Origin: Candidatus Omnitrophota bacterium
Lineage (GTDB): Bacteria; Omnitrophota; Gorgyraeia; Zapsychrales; JANLHA01
Length of the DNA stretch: 32,000 nucleotides
Direction: 5' to 3'
Assembly: GCA_963662715.1 (NCBI GenBank)
Contig: OY759724.1
Location: 1,800,001-1,832,000 of the forward strand
Shown here piece by piece: positions 6,122-30,713 of the stretch. Made by a program: the position numbers and the translations under genes. The notes under the pieces are model-generated. The model was not told the origin of the DNA. It was given only the letters and a program-made list of their open reading frames with translations, and made no database searches. How positions within the stretch are numbered: position 1 is the first letter of the stretch; the number at the start of each line of letters is the position of its first letter.

Positions 6122-6218
6122 GTTAAACGGAGACAGTCGGCAGAAACCGGAAGCGGAGAAATCTTGTCTTGCGGGGCAATTCATTATAAATTATATATAT
6201 AAATAAGATAATCTGTTG

Positions 6219-6224
6219 TATAAT
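6219..6224 (+). promoter_or_regulatory. candidate -10 element (TATAAT) ahead of the pilus cluster
   Basis: Perfect TATAAT in the AT-rich 174-nt gap after rodA, about 75 nt upstream of the MshEN gene. No convincing -35. Confidence 0.3.
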
Positions 6225-6295
6225 AGGCCAAAATTCTTATAGCTAAAAGACAGAATAAAAAAAGATATAAAATTTTGTGATGAATTCCAGATGAA

Positions 6296-6754
6296 TTGAA
6301 GAATATGAAAGACTACAAACGGACATCCAATAAACATTTAGGTGAATTACTCGTTGAGAAGGGTGTTATCGACCGGGAACAGGTCGCCATGGCCATGGCT
6401 TATCAAAATGAGAATGGCGGTCTTATCGGCGAGATCTTAGTTGAATTGAAATTCGCCACCGAAGAAGACATCGCTCAAGCCCTTACCTGCCAATATGGAT
6501 TCCCCTACCTGCCCTTATCGAACTATGAAATCGATCAAGAAGTCATTAACGCCGTCCCGGAGAACGTCTGCCAGAAGAATTGTCTTATCCCCATTGATAA
6601 GATCGGAAAAAGTTTGACCGTGGCCATGTCCAATCCTTTAAATCAAACAGCTGTCGAGGATATTGAAATGCTGACCGGTTGCAGTGTGCAAACCTTTGTG
6701 TCAACGACAAGCGATATCAAAGAAGCTATCAAAAAATACTACAGTATAGTTTAA
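6296..6754 (+). CDS. stand-alone MshEN / T2SSE_N domain protein (putative c-di-GMP receptor), no ATPase domain
   Basis: 152 aa that align by eye with the N-terminal roughly 150 aa of both downstream ATPases (VPENV..LIPIDK..LTVAMSNPLN..EDIEMLTG..IKEAIKKYY). Tandem 24-aa MshEN-like motifs (HLGELLVEKGVIDREQVAMAMAYQ, then LIGEILVELKFATEEDIAQALTCQ) are separated by the 5-aa spacer NENGG. The start could be TTG 6296 or ATG 6305. Confidence 0.8.
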   Translation: MKNMKDYKRTSNKHLGELLVEKGVIDREQVAMAMAYQNENGGLIGEILVELKFATEEDIAQALTCQYGFPYLPLSNYEIDQEVINAVPENVCQKNCLIPIDKIGKSLTVAMSNPLNQTAVEDIEMLTGCSVQTFVSTTSDIKEAIKKYYSIV

Positions 6755-6761
6755 GGACCCT

Positions 6762-8498
6762 ATGTTTTCCTTAAAAGAGCGATTACAAGAAATCCTTCTG
6801 CGAGATAACATTATTAAGCAGGAAGATTTAGACAGGGCTTTACAAGAACAAAAGAAATCCGGCGGTGATCTGAGTAAAGTCCTGGTGGAGTTAAATCTTA
6901 TTGGCGAGGATGACTTAACGCATATTCTCAGTGAAGGCTTGGGCCTCCCCCCGATTGACATATCCCGGCTGACAATCGACCCCAATGTCGTTAAGCTTAT
7001 TCCCCAGGAAGTCGCTGTCAAGTACCAGATTATGCCTATTTCCAAAATGGGCGGGAATCTGACGTTGGCGATGGCGGATCCGTTGAACATTTTTATTATT
7101 GATGATGTCAAAACCTTAACGGGGCTGAACATTACACCTATTATTGCCAGGTCCACACAGCTTCAGCAGGCGATTGAGCATTGTTATACGAATGAGGGTG
7201 AGTCTGCCGAAACACTGGAAAGCATTATTAAGGATATGCGTGATGCCGAGGAACTGGAGTTGGTGAAGGATCTGGAAGGGGACGGGGAGAAAGTATCCGT
7301 TGAAGATATTACCCAGGATGCCCCGATGATCAAGCTCACGGATACGATCATCCAGCAGGCTGTTATGGCCAAGGCCAGTGACGTTTTTATTGAGCCCTTG
7401 GAAAAAACGCTTCGTATCCGTTACCGTGTGGACGGGATTATCCGGGAAATTGATCAGATGTCGAAGGCGTTGCATCTTCCGATCATTTCCCGTATTAAAG
7501 TCATTTCCAACCTGGATATTTCCGAAAGGCGGGTTCCTCAGGACGGGAGATTCCGGACGATCCTTTCCGGAAACAGGGAAGTGGATTTCCGCGTGAACGT
7601 TTTGCCGACTGTTTTCGGGGAAAAGATCGTTTTGCGTGTTCTGGATAAATCGGCCGGGATGGTCGATATCGCCCAGCTGGGTTTTCAGCCGGCGGACCTG
7701 AAGAGGCTCCAGGAATGCTCCCAGAAACCGCACGGGATGATTTTGTCCTGCGGTCCGACGGGCAGCGGGAAAACGACAACACTATATTCTATTTTGAAAT
7801 TTGTGGACTCCCCGGGCAAAAACATCGTGACCGTTGAAGATCCTGTGGAATATCAGATGGTCGGGATGAATCAGGTGAACGTTAAGCCTTCGGTGGGCCT
7901 GAGTTTCGCTTCGACGTTACGTTCTATTTTGCGCCAGGACCCGGATGTGATCATGATCGGAGAAATCCGGGAGAGGGAAACCCTGGATATCGCTGTTAAG
8001 GCCGCGTTGACCGGGCATCTTGTCGTCAGTTCTTTGCATACCACGACCGCCCCAGGCTCTGTGATCCGTATGGTGAATATGGGCGTTGAACCTTTCCTTA
8101 TCTGTTCTTCTGTTATTGCCATTGTCGGCCAGAGATTATTAAGAAGGATCTGTCCGAAATGCAAACAGGAGAACGTGGTGTCAAAGGAAATGGCCGATAA
8201 ATTAGGCCTCCAGACAAAAGGGCAGAAGGGAGAGTTGACCCTTTTTCGCGGCAAAGGTTGTAAAAACTGTTTGAACACAGGGTACAAGGGCCGGGTGGGG
8301 ATCGCGGAAGTCCTGGTCCTGACCCCCAAGGTCCGGAAGGAAATTTTACAGCATTCCGGGGAACTGCAGATCAAAATGACCGGGAGAAAAGAAGGTATGA
8401 CGACCATGCGGGAAGATGCCGTGGCCAAAGCTTTGGCGGGTTTGACAACGATGGAAGAAGTGTTGCGGGTGACGGCCCCCGATGAGCCGCTGCCGTAA
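6762..8498 (+). CDS. pilB: type IV pilus / T2SS assembly ATPase, PilB/GspE family (paralog 1)
   Basis: T2SSE_N-like N-domain, Walker A GPTGSGKTTT, Walker B/Asp box DPDVIMIGEIRE, His box SSLHT, and a tetracysteine motif CPKC...CKNC typical of assembly rather than retraction ATPases. Confidence 0.9.
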   Translation: MFSLKERLQEILLRDNIIKQEDLDRALQEQKKSGGDLSKVLVELNLIGEDDLTHILSEGLGLPPIDISRLTIDPNVVKLIPQEVAVKYQIMPISKMGGNLTLAMADPLNIFIIDDVKTLTGLNITPIIARSTQLQQAIEHCYTNEGESAETLESIIKDMRDAEELELVKDLEGDGEKVSVEDITQDAPMIKLTDTIIQQAVMAKASDVFIEPLEKTLRIRYRVDGIIREIDQMSKALHLPIISRIKVISNLDISERRVPQDGRFRTILSGNREVDFRVNVLPTVFGEKIVLRVLDKSAGMVDIAQLGFQPADLKRLQECSQKPHGMILSCGPTGSGKTTTLYSILKFVDSPGKNIVTVEDPVEYQMVGMNQVNVKPSVGLSFASTLRSILRQDPDVIMIGEIRERETLDIAVKAALTGHLVVSSLHTTTAPGSVIRMVNMGVEPFLICSSVIAIVGQRLLRRICPKCKQENVVSKEMADKLGLQTKGQKGELTLFRGKGCKNCLNTGYKGRVGIAEVLVLTPKVRKEILQHSGELQIKMTGRKEGMTTMREDAVAKALAGLTTMEEVLRVTAPDEPLP

Positions 8499-8578
8499 CC
8501 CGATACGGAAAGCAAATACATACACCATGCCGGGCACACGACGTCCCCCCTTCGGGGACGCGGATCCGCCCATAAAAA

Positions 8579-10297
8579 TTGTCAGATATGTCACAACCAC
8601 TTAAGACAAAGATTATTCAAACGCTGATAGAGTCGCTCAATATTAAAAAAGAGGACCTGAACGAGGCGATGGAGCTGCAGAAAAGCAAGAACATCAGCCT
8701 GGACAGGGCTTTGATTGAGAAAGGCCTTATCAAAGAAGAAGACCTGATGGTCCTGCTTGTCCGGGAACTTCATATCCCTTTTATTAATTTAAAAAAATAC
8801 AAGATCGACCTTTCTTTAAAAGAGGTTATCCCCGAACGGGTCGCCCGGCAATACCGTATAATTCCTCTTTCCCAAATGGAAAAGACTATTACGATTGCGA
8901 TGTCTGATCCCTTAAATATCTTTGCCATTGATGATCTCAAGAATCTGACGGGCAAGGATGTGGACGTTGTCATGAGCACGGAATCAGATATTATGAATAC
9001 GATCGAAAGTTATTATGGCGGGAAGATTTCCAGTTCGGTCCAGGACGTCAGTAAGGATATCGACGTGGGGGGGCTGGAAATTATTTCTGACAGTGAGCTG
9101 ATTGAGGGTGCGGAGATCGCCGCTGATGAAGGGGAGCAGGCGCCCATTATCCGGCTTGTGAACCTTGTCATCCGGGAAGCCATAAAACAGCGGGCTTCGG
9201 ATATTCATATCGAGCCGATGCTCGACAGCATGCGCGTCCGTTACCGTATCGACGGGACTCTTGTGAACGCCATGAAAATCCCCAAAGACAATCAAAATGC
9301 CATTATCGTCCGTGTCAAGATCATGTCCCGCCTGGATATTACGGCCACCCAGGTGCCGCAGGACGGCCGTTTTAAAATGCGGGTCGCCAACCAGGAAGTG
9401 GATTTCCGCGTGTCTCTTTTGCCGACGACTTTCGGGCAGAAAATTGTCATGCGCGTCCTTGATAAAAAGAATCTGCGTGTCGGGCTGGACGGTCTTGGTT
9501 TCTCAGAGGCGTCGATCGAGAAGCTTAAAGATGCCATTGCGCAACCTTTTGGCATGATCCTCGTGACAGGTCCTACGGGGAGCGGGAAATCGACAACCCT
9601 GTATTCGATTATCAATGAGTTGAATCAGGTTGATAAGAATATTATTACTGTCGAAGACCCGGTTGAATATGTCGTTGATGGTTTGACGCAGATTCAGGTT
9701 AAAGCGGATATCGGATTGACTTTCGCGGAAGGCTTAAAGGCGATCCTCCGGCAGAGTCCGGATATTGTTATGGTCGGGGAAATCCGTGATTTTGAGACGG
9801 CGGACATCGCTATTAAGGCGTCGTTAACGGGGCAAATGGTTTACTCGACGCTGCATACCAATGATGCTCCGGGGGCGTTAACGCGTTTGGTTGATATGGG
9901 CGTAGAGCCTTTTTTGGTGTCCTCGAGTCTGGTGCTGGTCTGCGCACAAAGACTTTGCCGTAAAATATGCCGGCACTGTAAAGAACCTGTCACGATCCCG
10001 GATAAAGTTTTGCAGGAGTTGGGCATCCCGGTGAAAAAAGGACAGATTTTTTATCAGGGAAAAGGTTGCGATGGCTGCCGGCAAACAGGTTTTTTCGGAA
10101 GAATAGGCGTTACAGAAATGATGCCGTTGGACGATCATATCCGGGAGCTGCTGATTATGGGGAAGTCTTCCGATGAAATTAAGAACTATGCCAGGGAAAA
10201 AATGGGAATGCTGACATTGTGGGAAGACGGCGTGCAGAAATTTCTGCAGGGGGAGACAACATTGGATGAGGTCCTGAGGATCAGCTCCAGCGATTAA
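8579..10297 (+). CDS. pilB: type IV pilus / T2SS assembly ATPase, PilB/GspE family (paralog 2)
   Basis: Same architecture as paralog 1: GPTGSGKSTT, SPDIVMVGEIRD, STLHT, CRHC...CDGC. By eye about half of the core positions are identical to paralog 1. The start could be TTG 8579 or ATG 8588. Confidence 0.9.
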   Translation: MSDMSQPLKTKIIQTLIESLNIKKEDLNEAMELQKSKNISLDRALIEKGLIKEEDLMVLLVRELHIPFINLKKYKIDLSLKEVIPERVARQYRIIPLSQMEKTITIAMSDPLNIFAIDDLKNLTGKDVDVVMSTESDIMNTIESYYGGKISSSVQDVSKDIDVGGLEIISDSELIEGAEIAADEGEQAPIIRLVNLVIREAIKQRASDIHIEPMLDSMRVRYRIDGTLVNAMKIPKDNQNAIIVRVKIMSRLDITATQVPQDGRFKMRVANQEVDFRVSLLPTTFGQKIVMRVLDKKNLRVGLDGLGFSEASIEKLKDAIAQPFGMILVTGPTGSGKSTTLYSIINELNQVDKNIITVEDPVEYVVDGLTQIQVKADIGLTFAEGLKAILRQSPDIVMVGEIRDFETADIAIKASLTGQMVYSTLHTNDAPGALTRLVDMGVEPFLVSSSLVLVCAQRLCRKICRHCKEPVTIPDKVLQELGIPVKKGQIFYQGKGCDGCRQTGFFGRIGVTEMMPLDDHIRELLIMGKSSDEIKNYAREKMGMLTLWEDGVQKFLQGETTLDEVLRISSSD

Positions 10298-10483
10298 TAA
10301 TTATATTATCATTTATTGAAAATTTTTGGCAGCGGGCAGAAAAAATTTCTTATGCCGCAATGAAAATATGCCCGACGTCGTATCGAATTTTAAAAAAACA
10401 AAAAAATTCCATGAAAGACTTTTTATCTCCCCCAAAATGATGTTATATTATGGGTGGATGATTTTTACATAAGGACAGAAAAC

Positions 10484-11686
10484 ATGCCTACCTATAAATA
10501 CGTAGCAAAAGACCAGTCGGCGCGTAATGTCGTTGGCAAAATTAACGCCGAAAGTCAGTCGTCTGTCATCGAGGAGCTGAGAAAACGGCAGCTCACCATT
10601 ATCGATGTCAAAGAAGTAAAGTCGGGTACTTCCAAAGCCTATTTTGTCAGGAAATCCGTTAAGCCCGAAGATCTCGTCGTGTTCTCCCGGCAGTTATCGA
10701 CCATGGTGGACGCCGGCATCCCCATATTGCAGGCCCTGGATGCTTTGCAGGAACAGATCACACAAGCCTATTTCCAATCTGTGGTGATCGCGGTCCGTGA
10801 TGATATCCAGCTTGGCAGCAGTTTATCCGCCGCCTTTGCAAAACATCCCAAAGCGTTTGATACGCTCTTTGTTAATATGGTTAAAGTCGGTGAGACCGGC
10901 GGTGTTTTAAGCTCGATCCTGGACCGGATATCTTCTTACCTGGAAAAGACCTTAAAGTTGAAACGGAAAGTCAAATCCGCGTTAATATATCCCAGCGTTG
11001 TTATTTTTATGGCGGTTGTTATCACGGTTATTCTGCTTGTCAAAGTCGTCCCCACGTTTGCTTCCATTTATGATTCCTTCGACTCAGAGCTGCCGGCCAT
11101 GACCCAGATGCTGATCAATGTCAGTGACCTGCTTAAACATAATTTATTGTATTTGCTGGGAGGGCTGGTGCTGTTTGGGATCCTGGTGACACGGGGGTAT
11201 CACACCGATCGCGGTCGGGAAATTATTGATAGAGTGTCTTTACGCGTTCCTATCTTCGGCCCGCTCATCCGTAAAGTCGCCATCAGCCGTTTTAGCCGGA
11301 CGTTGGCGACGTTATTGCAGACGGGCGTCCCGATCCTGGAATCCCTGGATATCGTTGGCCGGACCAGCGGGAACCGGGTCGTAGAAAATGTTATCGTGAA
11401 TGTCAAAAATAACGTCCGGGAGGGGGAGAGTATCGCGACTCCTTTGGTGAAGAGCGGTGTGTTTCCTCCCATGGTGACGCGTATGATTTCTATCGGGGAA
11501 AAATCGGGCCAGTTGGAAAAAATGTTGGGTAAAATTGCTGATTTCTACGATGATCAAGTCGATGCTGCCGTTGCCGGTTTAACGAGTATTATTGAACCCC
11601 TCATCATTGGTTTTCTTGGTATTGTCGTTGGTTTTATTGTTATCGCGTTATTTTTGCCGATTATTAATATTACTCAGATTATTTAA
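10484..11686 (+). CDS. pilC: type IV pilus / T2SS inner-membrane platform protein PilC/GspF
   Basis: Two GspF-type repeats (FSRQLSTMVDAGIPILQAL and FSRTLATLLQTGVPILESL) and three TM segments. I use ATG 10484 (MPTYKY..., AAGGA 8 nt upstream) rather than the track GTG at 10454. Confidence 0.9.
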   Translation: MPTYKYVAKDQSARNVVGKINAESQSSVIEELRKRQLTIIDVKEVKSGTSKAYFVRKSVKPEDLVVFSRQLSTMVDAGIPILQALDALQEQITQAYFQSVVIAVRDDIQLGSSLSAAFAKHPKAFDTLFVNMVKVGETGGVLSSILDRISSYLEKTLKLKRKVKSALIYPSVVIFMAVVITVILLVKVVPTFASIYDSFDSELPAMTQMLINVSDLLKHNLLYLLGGLVLFGILVTRGYHTDRGREIIDRVSLRVPIFGPLIRKVAISRFSRTLATLLQTGVPILESLDIVGRTSGNRVVENVIVNVKNNVREGESIATPLVKSGVFPPMVTRMISIGEKSGQLEKMLGKIADFYDDQVDAAVAGLTSIIEPLIIGFLGIVVGFIVIALFLPIINITQII

Positions 11687-11720
11687 ACCCAGTGTTCCGT
11701 CTCTGGAATTTTCTTAAATT

Positions 11721-13295
11721 ATGGTTTTTACAAAAGAAAAGATTTTTGTTTGTTTTTTAAGCATTTCTCTGTTGTGTTTCCGTCTCCCCGGACTTTTCGC
11801 AGAAGAGGAGGCTCCCGCAGAGAAAATGCCTGCCGAACTGATGTTGGAGAACGCTATTGTTGATTTAAAGCAGACCATGAAAGACGCTATCCGGAAGAAT
11901 GAAGAGATTGAACAAAGAAATGGTGTGTTGCGTCAGGAGATTCTGAAGTATAAGGAGGACTTGCTCGAGCTGGAGAAGGAGAAAGACCAGTTCCTGGATG
12001 AACAGAGAATCCTGCAGGAAGCTTTGAGATTGCAGGAAGAGAAAAAGGACCTGTTGCTGAAAAAAACGGCGTCTCTGGCGGAAGAACAGAAATACCGGGC
12101 TGAAAAACAGGGGGATATGCAAAAGGAAATAGAGATTTTTATTAAAAAGCAGGATGCCTATCAGAAAGAAGCGGTTTTATTGGAGAACGAGGTGGATTTT
12201 TTTCGGAAGCAAGCCCGGAAAAAGGACCTGCAGGCTTTTTTGCGGGATAAGGATAGCAAAAGAAAAGAATTGGAAGAGCAAATAGCAGAAAAGGAAGAAA
12301 GTTTCAGGAAAAGAAAAGAGGATTTTCAGCGGGCGAAACAAAACATTGCTGAAGCATGCGATAAGAGAGACCGCCTTGAATCGGAAAAGGCAGAGAGGCA
12401 GCAGGCCATGGCTGAATTACATAATCAACGGGATAGTCTCGTGCGGGAGAAGGATGTTCTAGAAAAGCAGCGGGCGTCTTTTCAGACTAAAGAAGAAGCC
12501 CAGTTGCAGGCCTTTCAGGAAGACCTGGCCCGTCTGCGGTCCTATAAAGAACAATTGGAAAATGGTATTAACGATATGAAGGAAGCCCGGGAGCAGATAA
12601 AATATTCCTTTTCCCTGCAGGAAAAACAGTTCTCTGCTTTCAAAAAGTCGTTCGTTCAAGAGGCCGCTTTGCTGCAGAGGCAAAAAAGAGAATTGGAGAG
12701 TCTTGTCGCGTTGCAGAAAGCCATCTGCGATTTCTTACCCGAGGACAAGGCTTCGGACAGAGATATTTCCCTTGTCCGGGAATCTCTTCAGGATGAGATT
12801 CATAATACAAAGCTGGCCATTAAGAAGGCGCATATTTTTATTAGGGATTATCAAAAGCAGGAAAAAAAGCTTGTCCATGAAATCGCCCGCTTAGAAGCCA
12901 AGAAGAAACAGGTGGAGCGCCAGGCGTCAGAATCATCCGAGTCGGCCGAAGACATCAAAGAAGAGCTGACCCGTTTATTATCCGACGTTGAATTTGAAGA
13001 TGATGTTCCGGCCGAGGCTCCGGCAGCGGCCCGTGACGATAAAAGTCCTAAACCGCGTTCTGAGACAGACCGGACCGTAGAACGGGAAATTGAAGCTATG
13101 CAGTTAAGAGAGGCTGTTTTGTCGAATTCTTTGTCAATAATTCAGACACGTTATGAACAGGAAAAAGCGGTTGTCGATGATTTTCACAAGGAAGAAAAAG
13201 AACTTAAGGAATATTGGCAGGTTCTGCAGCAGGAGAATCGGGCCCTCCAGGAAAAAGTTTCCGGGCTTATTCAAGCCGTCGAAGCCGGCGAGTAG
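11721..13295 (+). CDS. secreted/periplasmic coiled-coil protein of unknown function embedded in the pilus cluster
   Basis: Long ORF with coding-like composition. Hydrophobic N-terminal signal-like segment (IFVCFLSISLLCFRLPGLFA|EEE), then about 480 aa of E/K/Q/R/L-rich heptad-like sequence and an acidic/proline linker (SESSESAED...PAEAPAAARDDKSPKP). I recognise no catalytic motif. Confidence 0.7.
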   Translation: MVFTKEKIFVCFLSISLLCFRLPGLFAEEEAPAEKMPAELMLENAIVDLKQTMKDAIRKNEEIEQRNGVLRQEILKYKEDLLELEKEKDQFLDEQRILQEALRLQEEKKDLLLKKTASLAEEQKYRAEKQGDMQKEIEIFIKKQDAYQKEAVLLENEVDFFRKQARKKDLQAFLRDKDSKRKELEEQIAEKEESFRKRKEDFQRAKQNIAEACDKRDRLESEKAERQQAMAELHNQRDSLVREKDVLEKQRASFQTKEEAQLQAFQEDLARLRSYKEQLENGINDMKEAREQIKYSFSLQEKQFSAFKKSFVQEAALLQRQKRELESLVALQKAICDFLPEDKASDRDISLVRESLQDEIHNTKLAIKKAHIFIRDYQKQEKKLVHEIARLEAKKKQVERQASESSESAEDIKEELTRLLSDVEFEDDVPAEAPAAARDDKSPKPRSETDRTVEREIEAMQLREAVLSNSLSIIQTRYEQEKAVVDDFHKEEKELKEYWQVLQQENRALQEKVSGLIQAVEAGE

Positions 13296-13353
13296 TATAA
13301 CTTATTTAATATTAAGTAGTAGCCGGGGGCAATGGCAGGAAATTTTCCCGGCC

Positions 13354-13383
13354 TTGACAAGGCCGTTTTGAGGATAGTATACT
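13354..13383 (+). promoter_or_regulatory. sigma70-type promoter (TTGACA-18-TATACT) driving the riboswitch leader
   Basis: TTGACA at 13354-13359, 18-nt spacer, TATACT at 13378-13383. The -35 lies inside the perfect palindrome GGCCTTGACAAGGCC (13350-13364). Confidence 0.6.
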
Positions 13384-13404
13384 TTCAGTAGGTTTAGACA
13401 ATTT

Positions 13405-13505
13405 GGAGATGTCAAAGGTAAACCATTCGTAAGGATGGGACACAAAGCTAGAGGGCCCTACCAGAGGGAGAGATATCCCCGGAGGGCAGCCAGTTGCCAT
13501 CAGAA
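13405..13505 (+). promoter_or_regulatory. c-di-GMP-I (GEMM-I)-like riboswitch aptamer
   Basis: AGGTAAACCATTCGTAAGGATGGGACACAAAGCT (13416-13449) resembles the 5' half of the V. cholerae Vc2 aptamer as I recall it (GGGCAAACCATTCGAAAGAGTGGGACGCAAAGCC), including a GNRA-capped hairpin. A GC-rich second helix follows, then a closing GGCAGCCAGTTGCC segment. TTGCC 13494-13498 can pair with GGTAA 13417-13421. The boundaries are approximate. Confidence 0.75.
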
Positions 13506-13531
13506 GGTTGTATTTACAAGGCAAAAACGAT

Positions 13532-13566
13532 AATCTGTCCATCTTACGAAGGACAGATTTTTTTTT
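13532..13566 (+). terminator. intrinsic terminator (riboswitch expression platform)
   Basis: AATCTGTCC (13532-13540) pairs with GGACAGATT (13551-13559). Inner T-A and C-G pairs leave a TTAC loop. A run of 9 T follows (13558-13566). Confidence 0.85.
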
Positions 13567-13753
13567 GGAATTGAATTGACAGTTAGAGGAACTATGTTAG
13601 CATGGAACTAAAGAAAAAGCCGACCTGTAAGCTAAGACAATGCCTCAGAGCAAGTTATGTGAACCGTCATTATTCGTATTTTTTGCTTTTGTTCTGTCAG
13701 GGTTGTTGATGGCTTGCGTGGTTAATCCGGGCTTGTGAAAGGAGGGAAAGAAA

Positions 13754-14146
13754 ATGAATAAGAAAGGTTTTACGCTCGTTGAAATCATGATCGTCGTCGC
13801 CATCATCGCCTTACTGGCAGCCATCGCTATTCCTAACTTGCTAAGAGCCAAGATCTCTGCTAATGATGCGTTGGCAAAGAGTACATTGCGTTCGCTGTCA
13901 ACAGCTTCCGAGACCTTCGCCACGGCAAATACGGGTAATTATCCTGTTGACATTACGTCTTTGACCGGCGCTACGCCGCCGTATATCAACACGGAATATT
14001 GTGCAACCACAGTGTCCGGTTTTAATTACTCCTGTACTTTTGACGCCAGTGGTGGACACTATACGTATACTGCAACTCCGGTAACTGTTGGAACATCAGG
14101 GACAACGACTTACACGATTACAACGGGAGGTATTTTAACTCCGTAG
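13754..14146 (+). CDS. prepilin with class III signal peptide (type IV pilin / GspG-like major pseudopilin)
   Basis: MNKKG|FTLVEIMIVVAIIALLAAIAIPNLL is a short basic leader, a G|F cleavage site, Glu at +5 and a hydrophobic helix. A GspG-like NTGNYP motif is present. A Cys pair (YCATTVSGFNYSC) and a T/G-rich C-terminus follow. GGAGG lies about 9 nt upstream. Confidence 0.9.
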   Translation: MNKKGFTLVEIMIVVAIIALLAAIAIPNLLRAKISANDALAKSTLRSLSTASETFATANTGNYPVDITSLTGATPPYINTEYCATTVSGFNYSCTFDASGGHYTYTATPVTVGTSGTTTYTITTGGILTP

Positions 14147-14174
14147 TTTTAGACAGCATGTGCGAAACAGCTTC

Positions 14175-14207
14175 TAGGGGGGGCCAGCATGGCCCCCCCT
14201 ATTTTTT
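14175..14207 (+). terminator. strong intrinsic terminator after the pilin gene
   Basis: TAGGGGGGGCC (14175-14185) pairs perfectly with GGCCCCCCCTA (14191-14201) around a 5-nt loop AGCAT. T6 follows (14202-14207). Confidence 0.9.
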
Positions 14208-14302
14208 GGAATCAATTGATGAGTAAGGGTTTAGGGGATATAAAGATTTGCTGTATGTTAAAAAAATTTTTTAACCAAAACACTGGGCTTTCAATTAAAA
14301 GG

Positions 14303-14311
14303 TGCTATAAT
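14303..14311 (+). promoter_or_regulatory. candidate extended -10 promoter (TGcTATAAT)
   Basis: TGC plus perfect TATAAT (14306-14311). The A7/T6 near-palindrome GTTAAAAAAATTTTTTAAC (14257-14275) sits where an UP element would. No good -35. Confidence 0.4.
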
Positions 14312-14331
14312 GCACCGATTAAGGAGGAAAT

Positions 14332-14466
14332 ATGAGGCCTCCCCCATTAAATACAGTTATTATTATTATACTTATACTCGGATTTATTGCCTTTGCCCGG
14401 TATCTTGTGATTGTTAACCAGGATATCCAGCAGCAAATCACTCTGGTCGGTCATACAGCGAGGTAA
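14332..14466 (+). CDS. unannotated 44-aa small membrane protein (hypothetical)
   Basis: Too short for the ORF track. AAGGAGG (14321-14327) lies 4 nt before the ATG. Translation is MRPPPLNTVIIIILILGFIAFARYLVIVNQDIQQQITLVGHTAR, with one clear TM helix. Stop TAA at 14464-14466. Confidence 0.4.
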   Translation: MRPPPLNTVIIIILILGFIAFARYLVIVNQDIQQQITLVGHTAR

Positions 14467-14598
14467 GACAGCAAGCGGGGGGCGTTGTCCTTAGTTCTTT
14501 TGCTTCCTAATGTTGAGATGCTGGTGGCGCATGTTTGATAGCTCAGGGCGGCAAGGTGAATTCCTAAAGAGATGATTGAAAAAAAAGCATATTGGGCT

Positions 14599-14627
14599 TT
14601 TAAATGGGGTATAGTTTTTGTTACAAT
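14599..14627 (+). promoter_or_regulatory. weak candidate promoter for pilMNOPQ (TTTAAA-17-TGtTACAAT)
   Basis: Extended -10-like TGTTACAAT (14619-14627) with a 4/6 -35 match at 14599-14604, about 78 nt upstream of pilM. Confidence 0.3.
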
Positions 14628-14704
14628 AGGGAATGTCTTAATTACTAGAAATAAATACTTTATAAGATTCTTCACTTTAACCGGATGTAAAAAGGTATTT
14701 CAAT

Positions 14705-15757
14705 ATGGCAGGTTTTCTTAAGCGTGTTATCCCGGAGCGGGCGGCAGTTCCGATGCTTGGTTTAGATATCGGGACCTATGCCTGCAAGGGCGTTAAAATG
14801 AAAAAAACGGGTTCCGGGTATACCTTATTAGACTGGGCCGTCGTTCCTGTAGAGGCGGGGGATCAGAAGAAAGCTATAAAACAGATAGTGCAAAAAATGT
14901 CAGCTGACCATATGGCTCCTTTAACGGCTGTCAACGGGAAAGGGACTCTTATCCGTTATATTGAACTGCCCCGTATGCCGCTGGCTGACTTGAAAAAATG
15001 TTTCGCCATAGAAGCTGATAAGTATTTTCCGTTTCCTTTAGACCGTATTTACACCGATTGCCATATTCTGGACACCACCCTGAAAGACAATAAAATGCTG
15101 GTCTTGGTCGCGGCATCCAAGAAAGAAATTGTTGATGACCGGGTGTCCCTGTTAACGGAATTAGGGTATCATCCTGATTTTATTTCACTTAATGCCGTAG
15201 CCATTTCTAACATTATTAATGTCCTGAACCCTAAGATGGATGAAAGTCCGGAAAAAACCGCAGACTCTGCCAATCACGCGGCTGTCGCTATTCTGGATAT
15301 CGGCGAGGTGGTCAGCAACTTAACGATTATGGCGCAGGGCATGCCTCTTTTCACCCGTGATGTCTTTATCGGAGGGCGGGATTTTACGAAAGCTTTAACA
15401 AATTCTTTAAGCCTGCGTTACGAAGAAGCAGAAAAACTTAAAGGGAATCCGGAGAAACAACTTGGGAAAGTCTTGGATGCCTGTGAATCTGTTATCATTA
15501 ACCTGGTGTCGGAATTGAGATTGTCGTTTGATTATTTCATGACGGAAAAGAATATCGGTATTACCTATTTGCTGCTTACCGGAGGGACATCCAAACTCGA
15601 AGGGATGGATAATATCATTGCCAAGAATTTGGATATTAAAGTCTCCCGGTGGAACCCCTTTCCCTGGGTGACCCTGGGAGAGAAGATCCAGGCGGAAGAG
15701 ATTGAAGGCCAGGCGCCGTTTTTGGCTGTCGCCCTGGGATTGGCCTTGTATTCTTGA
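14705..15757 (+). CDS. pilM: type IV pilus assembly protein PilM (actin-like ATPase fold)
   Basis: About 350 aa. LGLDIGTYACKGV N-terminal phosphate-1-like motif and LLLTGGTSKLEGM near the C-terminus. First gene of a pilMNOPQ-ordered block. Confidence 0.9.
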   Translation: MAGFLKRVIPERAAVPMLGLDIGTYACKGVKMKKTGSGYTLLDWAVVPVEAGDQKKAIKQIVQKMSADHMAPLTAVNGKGTLIRYIELPRMPLADLKKCFAIEADKYFPFPLDRIYTDCHILDTTLKDNKMLVLVAASKKEIVDDRVSLLTELGYHPDFISLNAVAISNIINVLNPKMDESPEKTADSANHAAVAILDIGEVVSNLTIMAQGMPLFTRDVFIGGRDFTKALTNSLSLRYEEAEKLKGNPEKQLGKVLDACESVIINLVSELRLSFDYFMTEKNIGITYLLLTGGTSKLEGMDNIIAKNLDIKVSRWNPFPWVTLGEKIQAEEIEGQAPFLAVALGLALYS

Positions 15758-15799
15758 CGCGGCCCGAGGCGGTAGGCATAACAAAAAGAATATTATAAA

Positions 15800-16384
15800 A
15801 TGATTGAAATAAATTTAGTACCACCGCAGTTTAAAAAGAAAAAGAAAAGCCGCCAAGTCAGCGAGTCGGCATCGAGCCCTTCTAAGAATAATATCATTGG
15901 GTTTGCCAGCCTTTTTATCGTTTTTCTGGCTATTGTCGCCGGAGCCTTGCAATTTATCATTTCGCAGAAATTAGCCCAGCGGAAAAAGTTGATGTCAGAA
16001 CTGGCAGAATTGGTCCCGCAGAAGATAAATACCGACAGATATGTCGGACAGATCAAGGATATTAATAAAAGATTAGAGCCGCTGGAAGAGATCCTGGGAC
16101 AGAAGGATATTATGTGGTCGAAAAAATTGCATGCTGTCAGTGAAAGCTTGCCTCGGGGTGTATGGCTGACCAAAATGCATCTGGACGAGGATGTTTTGCT
16201 TATTAACGGCAGTGCGGTATCGAAAGTCCAGACCGAAATGATCAGCGTGCATAGTTTTAATACAAGCTTAAAAAATAATGAGGATTTTATGGCGGATTTC
16301 AAGGAAATCGAACTCGAATATATCAAAAGCAGAACGATTAACGGAACCCCTGTCGCGGACTTCACGATCAGGGTTGATTTGTAG
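15800..16384 (+). CDS. pilN: type IV pilus assembly protein PilN
   Basis: N-terminal IEINLVPPQ motif (the PilM-binding INLLP type), a basic stretch, a single TM helix, then a periplasmic coiled-coil and ferredoxin-like region. Position fits. Confidence 0.85.
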   Translation: MIEINLVPPQFKKKKKSRQVSESASSPSKNNIIGFASLFIVFLAIVAGALQFIISQKLAQRKKLMSELAELVPQKINTDRYVGQIKDINKRLEPLEEILGQKDIMWSKKLHAVSESLPRGVWLTKMHLDEDVLLINGSAVSKVQTEMISVHSFNTSLKNNEDFMADFKEIELEYIKSRTINGTPVADFTIRVDL

Positions 16385-16409
16385 CCTCCGGGCAGAAAGA
16401 GGTTGATCC

Positions 16410-17015
16410 ATGGGTGGCATGACAGGACAGATGGGATCAGTTGTTAATAAGATGAACGAAAAGAATCCCTTTATGGTGATTGCGGGGGTCTTTACCGTGA
16501 TCCTTGTTGTTTTTTATCTGTTCCCCCTGCAGTTTCAGATCAAGACGCTGCAGACCGTCAACCCTAAAATCGAGGAACTCACAAATGACGTCACGGAGAC
16601 GAAGAATAATATTCTTCGTGTCAATCAGTATAAGAAGGAAGTCGCTAATCTGGAAAGCAAATACGAAAATTTGCAGCGAAGAATTAAGCAAAAGGAAGAC
16701 ATCCCGTTTTTATTGGAAAATATCTCCAGAATTGCGGATAAACACGGCGTGAGGATTGAACAAATTATGCCGCAAACAGCGATTGATGAACCTCTCCTGG
16801 AAAATGATGAGGGAAAATATTTCTCCATACCGATCATCATTGAGGCGCAAAGCGGTTTCCATAATTTTGGTATGTTTCTTAATCAGCTGGAACGGGAGGG
16901 GGTTTTTTTGCGGCTGACGGATTATTCGATTCAGACGGGTATCGATGACCCTCATCTGTGTTTGATTAACTTGTCCATTGAACTCGTTGTCTTTGAAGAT
17001 GGGGGCAAGGGATGA
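16410..17015 (+). CDS. pilO: type IV pilus assembly protein PilO
   Basis: Single N-terminal TM helix, coiled coil, and a PilO-like C-terminal domain. AAAGAGG lies 7 nt upstream. Size and position after pilN fit. Confidence 0.8.
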   Translation: MGGMTGQMGSVVNKMNEKNPFMVIAGVFTVILVVFYLFPLQFQIKTLQTVNPKIEELTNDVTETKNNILRVNQYKKEVANLESKYENLQRRIKQKEDIPFLLENISRIADKHGVRIEQIMPQTAIDEPLLENDEGKYFSIPIIIEAQSGFHNFGMFLNQLEREGVFLRLTDYSIQTGIDDPHLCLINLSIELVVFEDGGKG

Positions 17016-17395
17016 AAACTATGACGATCATGCGGGTTTTTATCTGTACTTTGATTCTCTGGGGCTACCGGGGGCCTGGGCTTCAAGCCGAAGAGGCTAT
17101 GGAAGAGGAGCCGGAGTTTATTTATGCCCCTAATGACAAAAGGGACCCTTTTTGGCCTTTGGTCAATTCCAAGGGGATGATTATCAGCTTTGAAAAAGAT
17201 TTGCTGGTAACGGATTTGATGCTGGAAGGAATATTTGTCGGTGAGGCAGGGAAGAACGTGGCTATCATTAACGGAAAAATTCTGCAGAAAAACGAATCAA
17301 TCGGTGTATTCACCGTTAAAGATATAAAGGAAAATCGGGTAACATTACAAAAAGGTCAAGAACGAGTCATACTAAAACTCAAAAAGGAGGATTGA
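17012..17395 (+). CDS. pilP: PilP-like periplasmic pilus assembly protein
   Basis: ATGA overlap with pilO. Signal peptide, an RDPFWPL motif (PilP-type DPF), and a small beta-rich C-terminus (VAIINGKIL..GV..VKDI). No canonical lipobox seen. Confidence 0.7.
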   Translation: MKTMTIMRVFICTLILWGYRGPGLQAEEAMEEEPEFIYAPNDKRDPFWPLVNSKGMIISFEKDLLVTDLMLEGIFVGEAGKNVAIINGKILQKNESIGVFTVKDIKENRVTLQKGQERVILKLKKED

Positions 17396-17396
17396 C

Positions 17397-18725
17397 ATGT
17401 TTAGGAAATGGGTAACACTGGTTATTTTTTTGGCCTTGATGATGACTCCTGCCTATGCACAAGAAAGCACCACGGCTGGTCAGCCTGGCTCGCAAGATAG
17501 TTTGTCTTTCTCCGACGAAGGGCATGTGAGCCTGGATTTTAGGGATGCAGATATCCAGAACGTGTTGCGTATCCTTTCTTATAAGAGTGGAGTCAACATC
17601 GTGGCAGGTCCGGAAGTGACAGGATTAATCACGATCAAACTGCAGGATGTCCCTTGGCAGAAAGCCTTGCAGGTTGTTTTGGAAACCTACGGCTATGCCT
17701 ATGAACAGCGGGGCAATATTATCACGGTCACAACGATTGAGAATCTTAAGAAAAGGCGGGAGGACGCGAAAGCATTGGCTGAGCAGGAACCGTTAATCAC
17801 GAAAACGTTTGTTCTGAATTATGCGAAAGCCACGGAAGTCATCGGCTCTGTTGCCAAGATGAAGACGGACCGGGGCAGCGTTAATCATGATGAGCGGACC
17901 AACGCCATTATTGTGCGGGATATCCCGGAGAACCTTGAGTTGATCGCAGAAGTGATTTCAAAACTGGATGAGACAACACCCCAGGTGCTGATCGAGGCCA
18001 AAATTGTTGAGACAACATTGAGCAACAGCGATAAATTAGGTATTGACTGGGTCGCCCAGGCTTCCATTACCGGGTCGGCCCGGCCGCATATCTGGCCTTT
18101 TTCAAACTCGACGGAAAATAAATATATGAAGGATGATAATTTCCCGTCAGCTTCCGAATCCGACTTCACCTTCGGGACTTTGAGTTTCGCCGAGGCGCAG
18201 GCGGTTTTTGAAGTGTTGTCATCTCGTTCTGATACGAATATTCTGTCAAACCCGCGTATCGTAACGCTGGATAACAAAACAGCAAAAATCACCGTGGGGA
18301 GCCAGTATCCGATCCCGGAGTACAACTACAATGAGGAACAGGCCACATTGCAGGTCAGCGGCTGGGAGTATAAAGACATCGGTATTATTTTTGAAGTTAC
18401 GCCGCATGTGAATAACACCGGCCATGTGACCCTGGATATTAATCCGAAGATTACGGCCATCCTGGATTATGTCACGGTAGAAAACACGTCGCTTCCTCAA
18501 TTGAGTGCCGAAGAGGCTCAGACGAGTGTTATGATAAAAGACGGTGAGACTCTTGTTATCGCGGGCTTGATCAAAGACCAGGTCTCCGACGTCGTAAGGA
18601 AAATCCCGTTATTAGGAGATATCCCGCTTCTGGGACAACTGTTTCGTAAAAACGAAAAGACAACGACGAAAACAGATCTTCTGATTTTCCTGACGCCGCA
18701 TATTATTACGGATGAACAGGAATAG
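17397..18725 (+). CDS. pilQ: type IV pilus secretin PilQ (compact, no AMIN domains)
   Basis: Signal peptide ending PAYA|QES. N0/STN-like domain (VSLDFRDADIQNVLRIL...DVPWQKALQVVL). Secretin core (NPRIVTLDNKTAKITVG, KIPLLGDIPLLGQLFR). AAGGAGG RBS. Confidence 0.9.
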   Translation: MFRKWVTLVIFLALMMTPAYAQESTTAGQPGSQDSLSFSDEGHVSLDFRDADIQNVLRILSYKSGVNIVAGPEVTGLITIKLQDVPWQKALQVVLETYGYAYEQRGNIITVTTIENLKKRREDAKALAEQEPLITKTFVLNYAKATEVIGSVAKMKTDRGSVNHDERTNAIIVRDIPENLELIAEVISKLDETTPQVLIEAKIVETTLSNSDKLGIDWVAQASITGSARPHIWPFSNSTENKYMKDDNFPSASESDFTFGTLSFAEAQAVFEVLSSRSDTNILSNPRIVTLDNKTAKITVGSQYPIPEYNYNEEQATLQVSGWEYKDIGIIFEVTPHVNNTGHVTLDINPKITAILDYVTVENTSLPQLSAEEAQTSVMIKDGETLVIAGLIKDQVSDVVRKIPLLGDIPLLGQLFRKNEKTTTKTDLLIFLTPHIITDEQE

Positions 18726-18853
18726 CCGTCTTTTTTCGGTGTAACGTATTGAAAAAAAGAAGATTATGAGCCTCTGCCTCCAGTTGGGATTGTCACAGCT
18801 AGGGGGCAGAGGTGTCCTTTTAGATTAGAATATTGTGAGGAATAGGAGGTATT

Positions 18854-30140: not shown

Positions 30141-30213
30141 GCCCCTGTAGCTCAGCCGGTAGAGCACGTCCTTGGTAAGGACGGGGTCACCGGTTCAAGT
30201 CCGGTCGGGGGCT
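30141..30213 (+). tRNA. tRNA-Thr (anticodon GGT)
   Basis: Hand-folded cloverleaf. Acceptor GCCCCTG/CGGGGGC with one G-U pair, D arm GCTC..GAGC, anticodon stem CGTCC/GGACG with loop TTGGTAA, T arm ACCGG-TTCAAGT-CCGGT. No encoded CCA. Confidence 0.9.
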
Positions 30214-30234
30214 CTGCGATAGAAAGAGAAAACA

Positions 30235-30387
30235 ATGCGAGAGAACATACAGTTTCAGTGTACTGATTGTAAAAGGATTAATTATCAGAGCACGAAAGAT
30301 AAAAAGAAAAAGCCGGAGCGGATTGAACTGAAGAAGTACTGTCGGTTTTGTCGCAAGCATACGTTGCATCGAGAAACAAAAAAATAA
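30235..30387 (+). CDS. rpmG: 50S ribosomal protein L33
   Basis: Not in the ORF track (50 aa). Translation is [50 protein letters not shown], the classic L33 with CxxC...CxxC zinc ribbon. AAAGAGAA lies upstream. Confidence 0.9.
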
Positions 30388-30441
30388 CATTATTTTACAT
30401 CAGGCTGTGCTTCCAGTTTTTTGTCGAACACGGTGTAAAAT

Positions 30442-30515
30442 AGGCCTGTAGCTCCAACTGGCAGAGCAACGGTCTCCAAAACCGTGTGATGTAGGTTCGA
30501 ATCCTACCAGGCCTG
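30442..30515 (+). tRNA. tRNA-Trp (anticodon CCA)
   Basis: Hand-folded cloverleaf. Acceptor AGGCCTG/CAGGCCT, anticodon stem ACGGT/ACCGT with loop CTCCAAA, T arm with GGTTCGAATCC. Its position before secE is a widely conserved arrangement. Confidence 0.9.
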
Positions 30516-30527
30516 CTTATAAAGATT

Positions 30528-30713
30528 ATGATTGCAAAAATAGGTAAATTTTTTTCCGAAACCCTTGTTGAATTAAAAAAGGTGTCTTGGTCCACAAAGC
30601 AGGAGCTGAAGGATTCGACATTGATCGTCTTTGTCAGTTCGGCATTCTTGGCTTTATTCATCTGGATCACGGATATGCTTCTTTCTAACTTTATCCGAAT
30701 CCTCATTAAATGA
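30528..30713 (+). CDS. secE: preprotein translocase subunit SecE
   Basis: 61 aa with KFFSETLVELKKVSWSTKQEL (the SecE KV.WP-type motif) followed by one TM helix. Located before nusG. Confidence 0.85.
   Translation: MIAKIGKFFSETLVELKKVSWSTKQELKDSTLIVFVSSAFLALFIWITDMLLSNFIRILIK

Follow-up and report, generated by a model that had tools for sequence, protein, structure and literature searches.

The 32-kb window analyzed here, a stretch of contig OY759724.1 from a Candidatus Omnitrophota bacterium, carries a cluster of pilus genes between positions 6,296 and 18,725 (coordinates without a locus number are those of the window, meaning the whole stretch of 32,000 nucleotides). This region is probably a chromosomal, phylum-wide type IVa pilus (T4aP) biogenesis locus of Omnitrophota, present here in its most reduced form and with two proposed inputs from the second messenger cyclic di-GMP (c-di-GMP), one through an RNA and one through a free MshEN protein. 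The locus is a distinctive variant of the T4aP in having a free MshEN module, twin PilB proteins, and a class I c-di-GMP riboswitch that lies between two promoters. An initial annotation of the same DNA had described a compact pilus machine with dual c-di-GMP inputs. The compactness and the riboswitch are upheld by the present analysis, and the protein input is plausible, with both arginines of its binding motif missing.

Architecture and classification of the pilus locus

The open reading frames (ORFs) of the window were scanned with Pfam and NCBIfam, and its RNA with Rfam. Together with the ORF listing, these scans bear out the gene list and order given in the initial annotation: all genes of the cluster lie on the + strand, in the order MshEN-only protein, PilB1, PilB2, PilC, coiled-coil protein, riboswitch, prepilin, 44-aa ORF, PilM-N-O, PilP-like protein, and PilQ. 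The protein-coding genes are the following.

6305..6754, + strand: stand-alone MshEN (GSPII) protein, 149 aa, candidate c-di-GMP receptor; Pfam MshEN
6762..8498, + strand: PilB1, 578 aa; T2SSE (443 bits) and an MshEN domain
8579..10297, + strand: PilB2, 572 aa, second PilB-type ATPase paralogue
10484..11686, + strand: PilC platform protein; two T2SSF domains, 222.6 bits
11721..13295, + strand: secreted coiled-coil protein, 524 aa; signal-peptide-like N-terminus; no Pfam family
13754..14146, + strand: major prepilin, 130 aa; leader MNKKG cleaved before FTLVE; two Cys; N_methyl and TIGR02532
14332..14466, + strand: single-pass membrane protein gene, 44 aa; own TGnTATAAT -10 element and Shine-Dalgarno sequence
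14705..15757, + strand: PilM; PilM_2 163 bits; TIGR01175 178.9 bits against a cut-off of 133
15800..16384, + strand: PilN; Pfam PilN 35.4 bits against a cut-off of 22.8
16410..17015, + strand: PilO; Pfam PilO 55.8 bits, above the gathering score
17012..17395, + strand: PilP-like protein, 127 aa, between pilO and pilQ; signal peptide, KRDPFxPL motif, beta domain
17397..18725, + strand: PilQ secretin, short form, 442 aa; signal peptide, N0/STN, one Secretin_N (N1), Secretin; no AMIN

These genes would form four transcription units, the first comprising the MshEN-only protein, PilB1, PilB2, PilC, and the secreted coiled-coil protein, the second the riboswitch leader with a monocistronic major pilin gene, the third the 44-aa membrane protein, and the fourth PilM-N-O-P-Q.

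Related loci were collected by a PilC scan of one genome per species, which gave 80 loci spanning +/-10 kb, and were compared by tblastn and ORF clustering. Nearly all of them belong to Candidatus Omnitrophota or to mis-binned "Planctomycetes" metagenome-assembled genomes (MAGs) of the same kind, and the PilC identity between the window and the Omnitrophota MAGs is 49-89%. The core rodA-MshEN-PilB1-PilB2-PilC...pilin...PilMNOPQ-rng is kept across the 80 loci. With lineage-variable genes in parentheses, the 5′ part reads rodA-(radical SAM)-(HAMP-GAF-GGDEF)-(PilT)-MshEN-PilB1-PilB2-(REC-HD-GYP or second MshEN)-PilC, and the 3′ part reads PilC-(coiled-coil protein)-pilin(s)-(minor pilins or TPR protein)-PilM-N-O-P-Q-rng-rplU-obg-proB. 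The coiled-coil protein is the only variable gene in the window, and likewise in the related loci L001 and L003 and in L020, which is less closely related; the sequence covered by L002, a fragment, also has no other variable gene. The comparison of gene neighbourhoods that the initial annotation had suggested thus yields one syntenic architecture, of which the window holds a reduced version. Since the relatives share this architecture, the "atypical parts list" noted initially is a reduced edition of a phylum-wide locus.

In terms of the variable genes, true PilT (more than 50% identical to the reference from L041) is encoded directly upstream of the MshEN gene in 27 of the 80 loci, and in L005, L006, L009, L012, L016, and L017 the interval from the pilin gene to pilM holds minor pilins, among them a PilX_N/DUF4900 protein. 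In 21 loci (for example, L029:8904-9974), a REC-HD-GYP gene with an intact HHExxDGxGYP motif is found between PilB2 and PilC, and its product looks, from its domains, like a two-component-controlled c-di-GMP phosphodiesterase inside the pilus operon. A HAMP-GAF-GGDEF gene adjoins the MshEN gene in 54 loci (for example, L005:4545-5993 and L041:3159-4619), and L018 and L019 additionally encode a 1415-aa GGDEF-AAA-HEAT protein and a protein whose GGEEF motif is intact. In L011, L013, L015-L019, and L021 (for example, L016:9533-9997), another stand-alone MshEN gene, which shares 33-43% identity with the one upstream of PilB1, is located between PilB2 and PilC, with the result that a free MshEN gene flanks the PilB pair on each side. 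A TPR protein of ~666 aa fills the interval between the pilin gene and pilM in other clades than the one with the coiled-coil protein. In the lineage of the window, PilT, the minor pilins, the HD-GYP phosphodiesterase, and the degenerate-GGDEF sensor would have been lost from the locus or relocated elsewhere.

The initial annotation had reported no PilT/PilU, PilD, or minor pilins in the 32 kb, and three kinds of search agree with it. The PilT, prepilin-peptidase, GGDEF, EAL, and HD-GYP families had no match among the ORFs of the window; tblastn of the window with a relative's PilT, GGDEF protein, and minor pilins matched only the ATPase cores of PilB1 and PilB2; and a scan of all six frames for prepilin cleavage signatures found one in-frame match and one off-frame match inside PBP2. 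The reading that had been built on this absence, that of a non-retractile or secretion apparatus, did not stand up to the PilT genes and minor pilins of the relatives. Because orthologous loci contain pilT, and the part of the genome seen is 32 kb, a non-retractile pilus cannot be inferred. What the window documents is a reduced locus and not an organism shown to be without PilT, and nothing in the evidence speaks for a pilus unable to retract.

Judged by family scores, the cluster is T4aP machinery, and neither a mixture of T4aP and type II secretion system (T2SS) parts nor a mannose-sensitive hemagglutinin (MSHA) locus. The mixture proposed initially is unsupported because all core parts score best as T4aP; PilB1, PilB2, PilC, PilM, PilQ, and the pilin are each nearest to this class. 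The PilB model TIGR02538 is the best family for both ATPases (643.5 bits for PilB1 and 623 for PilB2, just under the equivalog cut-off of 675.65), compared to 556.5 bits for PilB1 with the GspE model. Among solved structures, the best relative of PilB1 is Geobacter PilB 5ZFR (550 bits; GspE 4PHT, 387), and for both paralogues the scores are ~550 bits with Geobacter PilB, ~522 with that of M. xanthus, and 387-402 with GspE. For PilC, the NCBIfam T4P PilC models gave 433 and 430 bits and GspF 387, all below their cut-offs. The secretin passes the PilQ model TIGR02515 (309.3 bits against 284.35) while the GspD, MshL, and HofQ models stay below their cut-offs, and its best solved relatives are the PilQ proteins of M. 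xanthus, V. cholerae, and P. aeruginosa. As had been noted initially, this 442-aa secretin is without AMIN: Pfam finds N0/STN, Secretin_N, and Secretin only. AMIN-less short secretins of the PilQ family are already known, for example HofQ/ComE.

The pilin has a class III signal peptide with a short leader, F+1, and E+5. Its best solved relatives are Geobacter PilA-N (4.8e-12) and Thermus PilA4 6XXD (1.2e-10, over residues 6-118), with GspG at 9.6e-5. The NTGNYP stretch, which had been taken as GspG-like, is matched in the alignment by the equivalent loop in genuine type IVa pilins. The pilin scored 42 bits to the GspG model TIGR01710, against a cut-off of 88.85, and had no Pfam T2SSG domain; GspC, GspL, GspM, and the pseudopilins GspH-K were not found among the window ORFs with Pfam and NCBIfam. 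A hybrid of a GspG-like pilin and a T2SS was therefore rejected on the NCBIfam cut-offs and the comparison with solved structures. Classification as MSHA was also rejected, as the secretin scored 156.9 bits to MshL TIGR02519 against a cut-off of 250.2. No protein of the Msh-specific set (MshI/J/K/M/N) was found in the window, and PilMNO stand in their place.

The c-di-GMP-I riboswitch and the pilin promoters

The regulatory features around the pilin gene are listed below.

13354..13383, + strand: promoter 1, TTGACA-18-TATACT, drives the riboswitch leader; sigma-70-like match 11/12
13404..13506, + strand: c-di-GMP-I (GEMM-I) riboswitch aptamer including the closing helix P1; Rfam RF01051
13532..13566, + strand: intrinsic terminator of the riboswitch leader; 8 + 2 bp stem, then U9
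13576..13603, + strand: promoter 2, TTGACA-16-TAGCAT with upstream TG, between the riboswitch terminator and the pilin gene; match 10/12
14175..14207, + strand: intrinsic terminator after the pilin gene; 12-bp stem with 9 G-C pairs, T-run
14599..14627, + strand: promoter-like site upstream of pilM; TTTAAA-17-TACAAT with upstream TG

By family score and covariation, the riboswitch is a genuine c-di-GMP-I aptamer, and on both counts the call made in the initial annotation is confirmed. The model RF01051 matches 13407-13501 with 57.7 bits (gathering score 35, E 5.8e-9), and the L001 aptamer scores 58.4 bits. Homologues were collected with nhmmer and a purpose-built covariance model, R1, which placed the aptamer in 16 sequences (the window and 15 loci). 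All 14 of the sequences that reach the first pilin gene have the aptamer upstream of it, L010 and L027 ending before that gene, and the aptamer is present in 13 of the ~39 loci that include the pilin. Covariation was assessed on 14 distinct sequences: 94.8% of cells were paired, compared to 24-48% in slid controls, 8 pairs had changed on both sides, and none of 500 shuffles reached the covariation score. The P1 helix covaries as GAUG/CAUC, AUUG/CAAU, and UCUG/CAGA, and one base pair of P2 is either U-A or C-G. The invariant AAA junction, the invariant CCA, and the unpaired G before G(U/C)AAACC are all present in the window aptamer; we take these positions to be the equivalents of A47, C92, and G20 in Vc2 numbering. 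The c-di-GMP-I-GGC variant RF03167, which scores 57.3 bits under permissive thresholds and is the top model in L005, was considered and rejected: where a G defines the variant, the window carries the canonical A, and the nearly equal score does not come from the variant nucleotide.

Two of the homologous aptamers depart from this pattern. In L018 (17517-17617), an A stands at alignment column 14, where the other homologues keep the unpaired G that precedes G(U/C)AAACC, a position that is presumably equivalent to G20. The G20A change makes some GEMM-I RNAs selective for 3′3′-cyclic GMP-AMP in Geobacter. The same L018 locus also carries extra GGDEF-family proteins. In L012 (12270-12417), an insertion of ~45 nt with two extra hairpins lies between P2 and the ACAAAGC junction, and this aptamer scores 39 bits with the family model and is below the Rfam gathering threshold.

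Promoter 1 is the best sigma-70-like match in 6100-18900. Its -35 and -10 elements are kept in L001-L003, and the -10 element TATACT recurs in more distant homologues. The terminator follows the aptamer after a 25-nt linker, and a stem with a U-run is found at the same place in nearly all homologues, with differing stem sequences. The leader folds at -54.9 kcal/mol (z = -4.0). In the minimum-energy folds, the aptamer helices coexist with an independent terminator clearly in 11 of 13 homologues, and also in the window. When the terminator was forbidden, its pyrimidine-rich 5′ arm paired with the purine-rich 3′ strand of P2 (of P3 in L002 and L017), and the resulting terminator-free fold cost 3.5-8 kcal/mol in 7 of 13 sequences. 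An antiterminator that uses the 3′ strand of P1 was sought in the homologue folds and nothing consistent was found; the recurrent partners were the 3′ strands of P2 and P3. Since the predicted antiterminators consume 3′ strands of the aptamer, which is incompatible with a ligand-locked aptamer, an OFF design is indicated, and these modelled folds incline us, with some reserve, towards an OFF switch in which the ligand favors termination. The canonical aptamer would be transcribed from the strong promoter 1, and ligand binding would favor the self-contained terminator.

Promoter 2 lies downstream of that terminator. It is kept in L001-L003, and a perfect TTGACA-16/17-TAnnnT occurs in the interval in 12 of the 14 riboswitch-bearing sequences. 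Because this conserved promoter lies behind the terminator, the RNA would modulate rather than gate the pilin mRNA, whose level would range from high, with both promoters in use, to basal, with promoter 2 alone. The control of pilin supply by the riboswitch that had been proposed initially is thus retained for the RNA itself, which is real, and qualified for the control, which is probably partial.

The pilin 5′ untranslated region downstream of promoter 2 (~150 nt) contains, at 13655-13675, the conserved block TTATGT(G/A)AACCGTCATTATTC. The block is common to L001-L003 while its surroundings diverge, and it matches no Rfam family; from its conservation it could be a protein- or RNA-binding site. 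A second structured RNA was sought in 13296-14720, and only sub-threshold, chance-level matches to small RNAs, over the pilin terminator, were obtained. The pilin terminator is strong and is kept in L001-L003, as is the block GTTTTTGTTACAATA at the promoter-like site of pilM.

The stand-alone MshEN protein, the PilB motors and the remaining genes

The MshEN-only ORF is listed as 6296-6754, and its start is placed at 6305 because close homologues begin at MKDYKR, which makes the ATG at 6305 the probable true start. The protein matches Pfam MshEN with 75.4 bits (cut-off 23.1) and the NCBIfam c-di-GMP motif NF053729 with 61 bits (cut-off 38). Its AlphaFold model (mean predicted local distance difference test score 82.7) has a complete MshEN fold, with a four-helix N subdomain and an alpha/beta C subdomain. 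In Foldseek, the model matched 5HTL, MshE bound to c-di-GMP (5HTL_B), with a template modelling score of 0.81-0.86 and a root-mean-square deviation of 2.0 Å, and it also superposes on the GSPII-A and GSPII-B domains of Thermus PilF. In terms of sequence, its best match among solved structures is Thermus PilF (E 1.4e-37). Practically every related locus whose sequence includes this position has the gene immediately before PilB1. The family consists of highly conserved proteins of ~150 aa, the top 120 clusters being at least 71% identical, and is annotated as "hypothetical protein" by NCBI and as "PilB" by JGI.

The published MshEN motif consists of two copies of RLGxxLLxxGLLxxxxLxxxLxxQ separated by a 5-residue spacer. 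The phylum-wide consensus of 63-69 orthologues is (Q/H)LGELLIERGIITQEQLDQALAVQ-KEKGG-LIGEILVELGFATEEDIAQALTAQ. Both LG glycines (G11 and G40), Q32, Q61, the hydrophobic positions, and the 5-residue spacer are kept across the phylum; the G47 equivalent in the window protein is Lys. In V. cholerae MshE, G11L and G40I abolish c-di-GMP binding, and changes of Arg9 shift the affinity less than five-fold (PMC5013675). The corresponding glycines are lost from the N1 domains of both motors, being replaced by Q/T and S in PilB1 (Q and S in the window) and by I and D/R in PilB2 (I and D in the window). The stand-alone protein is proposed as the sensor because the glycines needed for binding are kept there and lost in the N1 domains of PilB1 and PilB2. 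It would act in trans on the PilB1/PilB2 motor, whose own N1 domains would no longer sense the nucleotide, and we give such sensing of c-di-GMP in trans an even chance of being correct. Of the motor control through MshEN suggested initially, the fold is borne out by Pfam and by the AlphaFold model compared with 5HTL, and the binding of c-di-GMP by a protein that is missing both motif arginines remains a prediction.

Clustering at 50% leaves many stand-alone MshEN proteins among the representatives, beside proteins with 2-7 tandem MshEN domains, and the stand-alone architecture is therefore widespread. Many of the top matches of 6305-6754 in 1.84 billion representatives are such tandem proteins, of 290-1345 aa, and their domain content suggests a large uncharacterised diversity of MshEN-array proteins. 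Term searches within the MshEN structure paper and a 2026 survey of c-di-GMP genes gave no mention of stand-alone or single-domain MshEN proteins.

PilB1 and PilB2 are 43% identical. In all 61 loci with both genes complete, the first PilB gene is closer to PilB1 and the second to PilB2. Because every one of these loci keeps the paralogue positions, the duplication predates the sampled radiation and the order has been fixed. Across the orthologues, both paralogues retain an intact Walker A, catalytic Glu, Walker B, and His box. PilB2 is the more invariant, its Walker A and His-box motifs showing no change across 42 aligned sequences. With these motifs kept, both paralogues are probably active, and both appear to be required. 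From what is known of the families, the two catalytically intact paralogues would power pilin polymerisation on PilC. The ORF of the latter opens at GTG 10454, and its probable start is ATG 10484.

The fibre would then pass through a PilMNOP alignment complex and the short AMIN-less PilQ channel, as expected from the same families. The PilN N-terminus, MIEINLVPP, resembles what we take to be the PilM-binding INLLP motif. The PilP-like protein has no Pfam PilP match and no obvious lipobox, and weak T2SSB matches occur in 18 of 19 members; a profile of the 19 orthologues weakly matched M. xanthus PilP first (3JC8 chain P, E 0.003), then GspC HR and GspB.

Two further genes of the cluster were assessed by comparison. 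The coiled-coil protein has a high content of E, K, L, and Q, with Glu at 15.6% and Lys at 11.6%, and a counterpart follows PilC or PilQ in 16 of the 21 loci L001-L021, with 22-37% identity where this is detectable. The counterparts have the same N-terminus and composition, are 300-700 aa long with 45-54% E/K/Q/L/R, evolve very fast, and are confined to one sub-clade, and by this distribution the protein is a lineage-restricted accessory component. By comparative criteria the 44-aa ORF is a real gene: it is kept with its -10 element in L001-L003, and in an alignment its conserved core differs largely at third codon positions. It was not detected in loci more distant than these three. A 48-aa ORF at 14189-14335 was dismissed, as it overlaps the pilin terminator and is not conserved.

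The flanks of the cluster consist of housekeeping genes upstream (aroA, mreBCD, pbp2, and rodA) and, downstream, of rng, rplU, obg, proBA, nadD, a phosphoglucomutase/phosphomannomutase-family gene, and an acyltransferase-family gene, followed further on by an S1-domain protein (probably rpsA), tyrS, tRNA-Thr, tRNA-Trp, nusG, and rplK. The genes for tRNA-Thr(GGU) and tRNA-Trp(CCA), at 30141-30516, precede nusG-rplK, and no tuf gene intervenes. The ORF of 61 aa at 30528-30713 may be secE.

Alternative explanations, known systems and significance

Several observations weigh against a locus with two c-di-GMP inputs. Both motif arginines of the stand-alone MshEN protein are replaced (by H/Q and by L), and a relaxed version of the published motif pattern fails to match it, although NF053729 passes its cut-off. 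Thermus GSPII-A is non-binding even after its motif was restored to the consensus, and motif conservation is thus not sufficient for binding. On the RNA side, the predicted antiterminators must open the stable P2 hairpin and are weak in some homologues, the cost in the window being 12.3 kcal/mol, and the outputs would oppose each other if an OFF riboswitch were paired with an activating MshEN sensor. The 32 kb contain no c-di-GMP turnover gene. In the relatives, the GGDEF active site is degenerate in 37 of 38 full-length copies (DDDEF, AEHEF, GDHEF, and similar), with loss of the I-site arginine. The presence of a diguanylate cyclase next to MshEN was rejected for these 37 copies without GG(D/E)EF, and because of the degenerate site the GGDEF neighbor is not evidence for local c-di-GMP synthesis; the HAMP-GAF-GGDEF protein is probably, from its sequence, a sensor or adaptor rather than a cyclase. 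The link to c-di-GMP holds, through the riboswitch, the free MshEN protein, and the HD-GYP and GGDEF-domain genes in the loci of relatives.

If the missing arginines meant that MshEN is a non-sensing structural or adaptor subunit, the riboswitch would be the sole input and the cluster an ordinary T4aP with pilT, pilD, minor pilins, and c-di-GMP enzymes elsewhere in the genome. This is rather unlikely in our judgment, given that G11, G40, Q32, Q61, and the exact spacer are kept phylum-wide while the PilB proteins lose the glycines, and that HD-GYP and GGDEF-domain genes are embedded beside MshEN in most relatives. It does draw support from PilF GSPII-A, a non-binding MshEN-like domain among the closest solved relatives of the protein, and from the N-terminal domain of X. 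citri PilB, a docking site for PilZ and not a nucleotide site (7LKM and 7LKO are among the fold matches). In addition, pilT is adjacent in only the 27 loci noted above, therefore scattered accessory genes are normal in the phylum, and the KEGG tables in the accessible part of the Seymour et al. 2023 supplement list pilD (K02654) and pilT (K02669) for two Omnitrophota species clusters. A machine serving primarily DNA uptake, as a competence pilus or translocator of the Thermus or HofQ/ComE kind and not as an adhesion or motility pilus, is improbable. The HofQ models align end to end with the short AMIN-less secretin (215 bits, residues 39-438) and yet score far below their cut-offs while the PilQ model passes, and comEA, comEC, and dprA were not found among the window ORFs by the family scans. 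Thermus PilF and PilA4 are among the closest solved relatives of the MshEN protein and the pilin and function in piliation as well as in natural transformation (PMC12002112), and the single pilin and the lack of a local pilT also fit such a role; on the other side, pilT, PilX-like minor pilins, and TPR proteins of the sort expected in a full T4aP are present in the relatives, and the literature on the phylum favors host attachment (PMC10066038).

A non-retractile fibre or T2SS-like secretion apparatus built from hybrid T2SS and T4aP parts has very little probability left. The lack of PilT, PilD, and minor pilins in the 32 kb and the sub-threshold GspG match of 42 bits are in its favor, but the pilin falls short of the GspG cut-off and has no T2SSG domain, GspC/GspL/GspM and GspH-K are missing from the window, the core parts are all best as T4aP, and the orthologous locus in 27 relatives includes PilT. 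The T2SS part of this explanation is largely refuted. With respect to the riboswitch, an ON switch like that of C. difficile pilA1, through which c-di-GMP would increase pilin transcription and so act in the same direction as an activating MshEN sensor, is possible but on the unlikely side. Its output would agree with activation of the MshE type, the antiterminator predicted for the window's own leader is weak, and a C. difficile c-di-GMP riboswitch increases expression of the pilus operon (cited in PMC11656802). Against this, the terminator does not overlap the aptamer and both coexist in the minimum-energy folds, and every predicted terminator-free fold uses aptamer strands, so that a ligand-stabilised aptamer should favor the terminator, as in the OFF switch preferred here.

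As a T4aP, the machine of the window has the same core parts and pilM-N-O-P-Q order as those of M. xanthus and P. aeruginosa, and a prepilin with the same short leader, F+1, and E+5; the M. xanthus machine 3JC8 is among the best solved relatives of PilB1, PilB2, the PilP-like protein, and PilQ. It differs from a canonical T4aP in its tandem PilB paralogues, its separate MshEN protein, the riboswitch before the pilin gene, a secretin without AMIN and with one N1, a PilP-like protein without an obvious lipobox, and a locus that, in the window's lineage, is without pilT, pilD, and minor pilins. The PilF ATPase of Thermus thermophilus, which has three GSPII/MshEN domains, matches the MshEN-only protein, and Thermus PilA4 matches the pilin. 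In both Thermus and Omnitrophota, extra MshEN modules are attached to one pilus motor system, and in Thermus some of them bind c-di-GMP and some do not. However, the extra domains of Thermus are fused in one polypeptide, whereas in the window the domain is a separate gene product (two in some relatives) and the ATPase is duplicated. V. cholerae MshE, the c-di-GMP-activated ATPase of MSHA, has the same fold, and its two 24-residue half-motifs with the 5-residue spacer are recognisable in the window protein. In contrast to the V. cholerae system, the window has an MshL score below the cut-off, a PilMNO complex, an unfused sensor-like domain, and neither motif arginine.

The clostridial pilA1 riboswitch is of class II. 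The riboswitch of the window, by comparison, is of class I with an OFF-like architecture and has promoter 2 behind it, its host is a diderm with a secretin, and the sensor domain is stand-alone. The likeness is that C. difficile pilA1 likewise has a c-di-GMP riboswitch (an ON switch) upstream of type IV pilus genes, and that C. perfringens PilB2, with an MshEN-type motor domain in the same kind of system, binds c-di-GMP (PMC11656802). The idea of a dual input through RNA and protein has a precedent because the clostridial riboswitch and PilB2 combine both. In the Xanthomonas citri PilB-PilZ-FimX system (PMC8389850), a separate c-di-GMP-sensing module acts via the N-terminal domain of PilB. There the trans-acting sensor is FimX, with degenerate GGDEF-EAL domains, working via PilZ, whereas here the candidate is a free MshEN domain. 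The Omnitrophota relatives also resemble X. citri in encoding a degenerate-GGDEF HAMP-GAF protein beside MshEN.

Omnitrophota are uncultured, mostly ultra-small bacteria that are thought to be predators or parasites. Nearly all of them encode T4aP, for which a role as the organ of host attachment has been proposed (Seymour et al. 2023, PMC10066038). The terms c-di-GMP, riboswitch, PilT, and secretin do not occur in the main text of that paper or in a 2026 preprint on Omnitrophota genomes. Our data indicate that the pilus locus belongs to the syntenic core of the chromosome, flanked by the rod-shape genes on one side and rng-rplU-obg on the other, that in every case it has two PilB paralogues together with a free MshEN protein, and that it is repeatedly tied to c-di-GMP elements, namely the riboswitch, the HD-GYP protein, and the degenerate GGDEF proteins. 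The single pieces are known. Their fixed, phylum-wide combination in host-dependent nanobacteria gives hypotheses open to biochemical testing. A correct name for the stand-alone MshEN family would also improve the annotation of thousands of metagenomic proteins.

The hypotheses raised are a trans-acting MshEN sensor, a purpose for the twin PilB motors, and a riboswitch between two promoters that tunes the pilin supply. Taken jointly, they suggest a tentative model, about which we are more doubtful than confident, in which the sensing N1 domain of the motor has been split off as a free 149-aa subunit that reads c-di-GMP in place of the degenerate N1 domains within the PilB proteins and licenses the obligatorily paired PilB1/PilB2 motor, as part of a phylum-wide local c-di-GMP circuit. 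Where a lineage has no local pilT, one of the PilB paralogues might, in this model, double as the retraction motor. If the model is true, the free MshEN protein, the HD-GYP and degenerate-GGDEF proteins, and the riboswitch-guarded promoter pair would control the host-attachment pili of ultra-small bacteria that depend on hosts.

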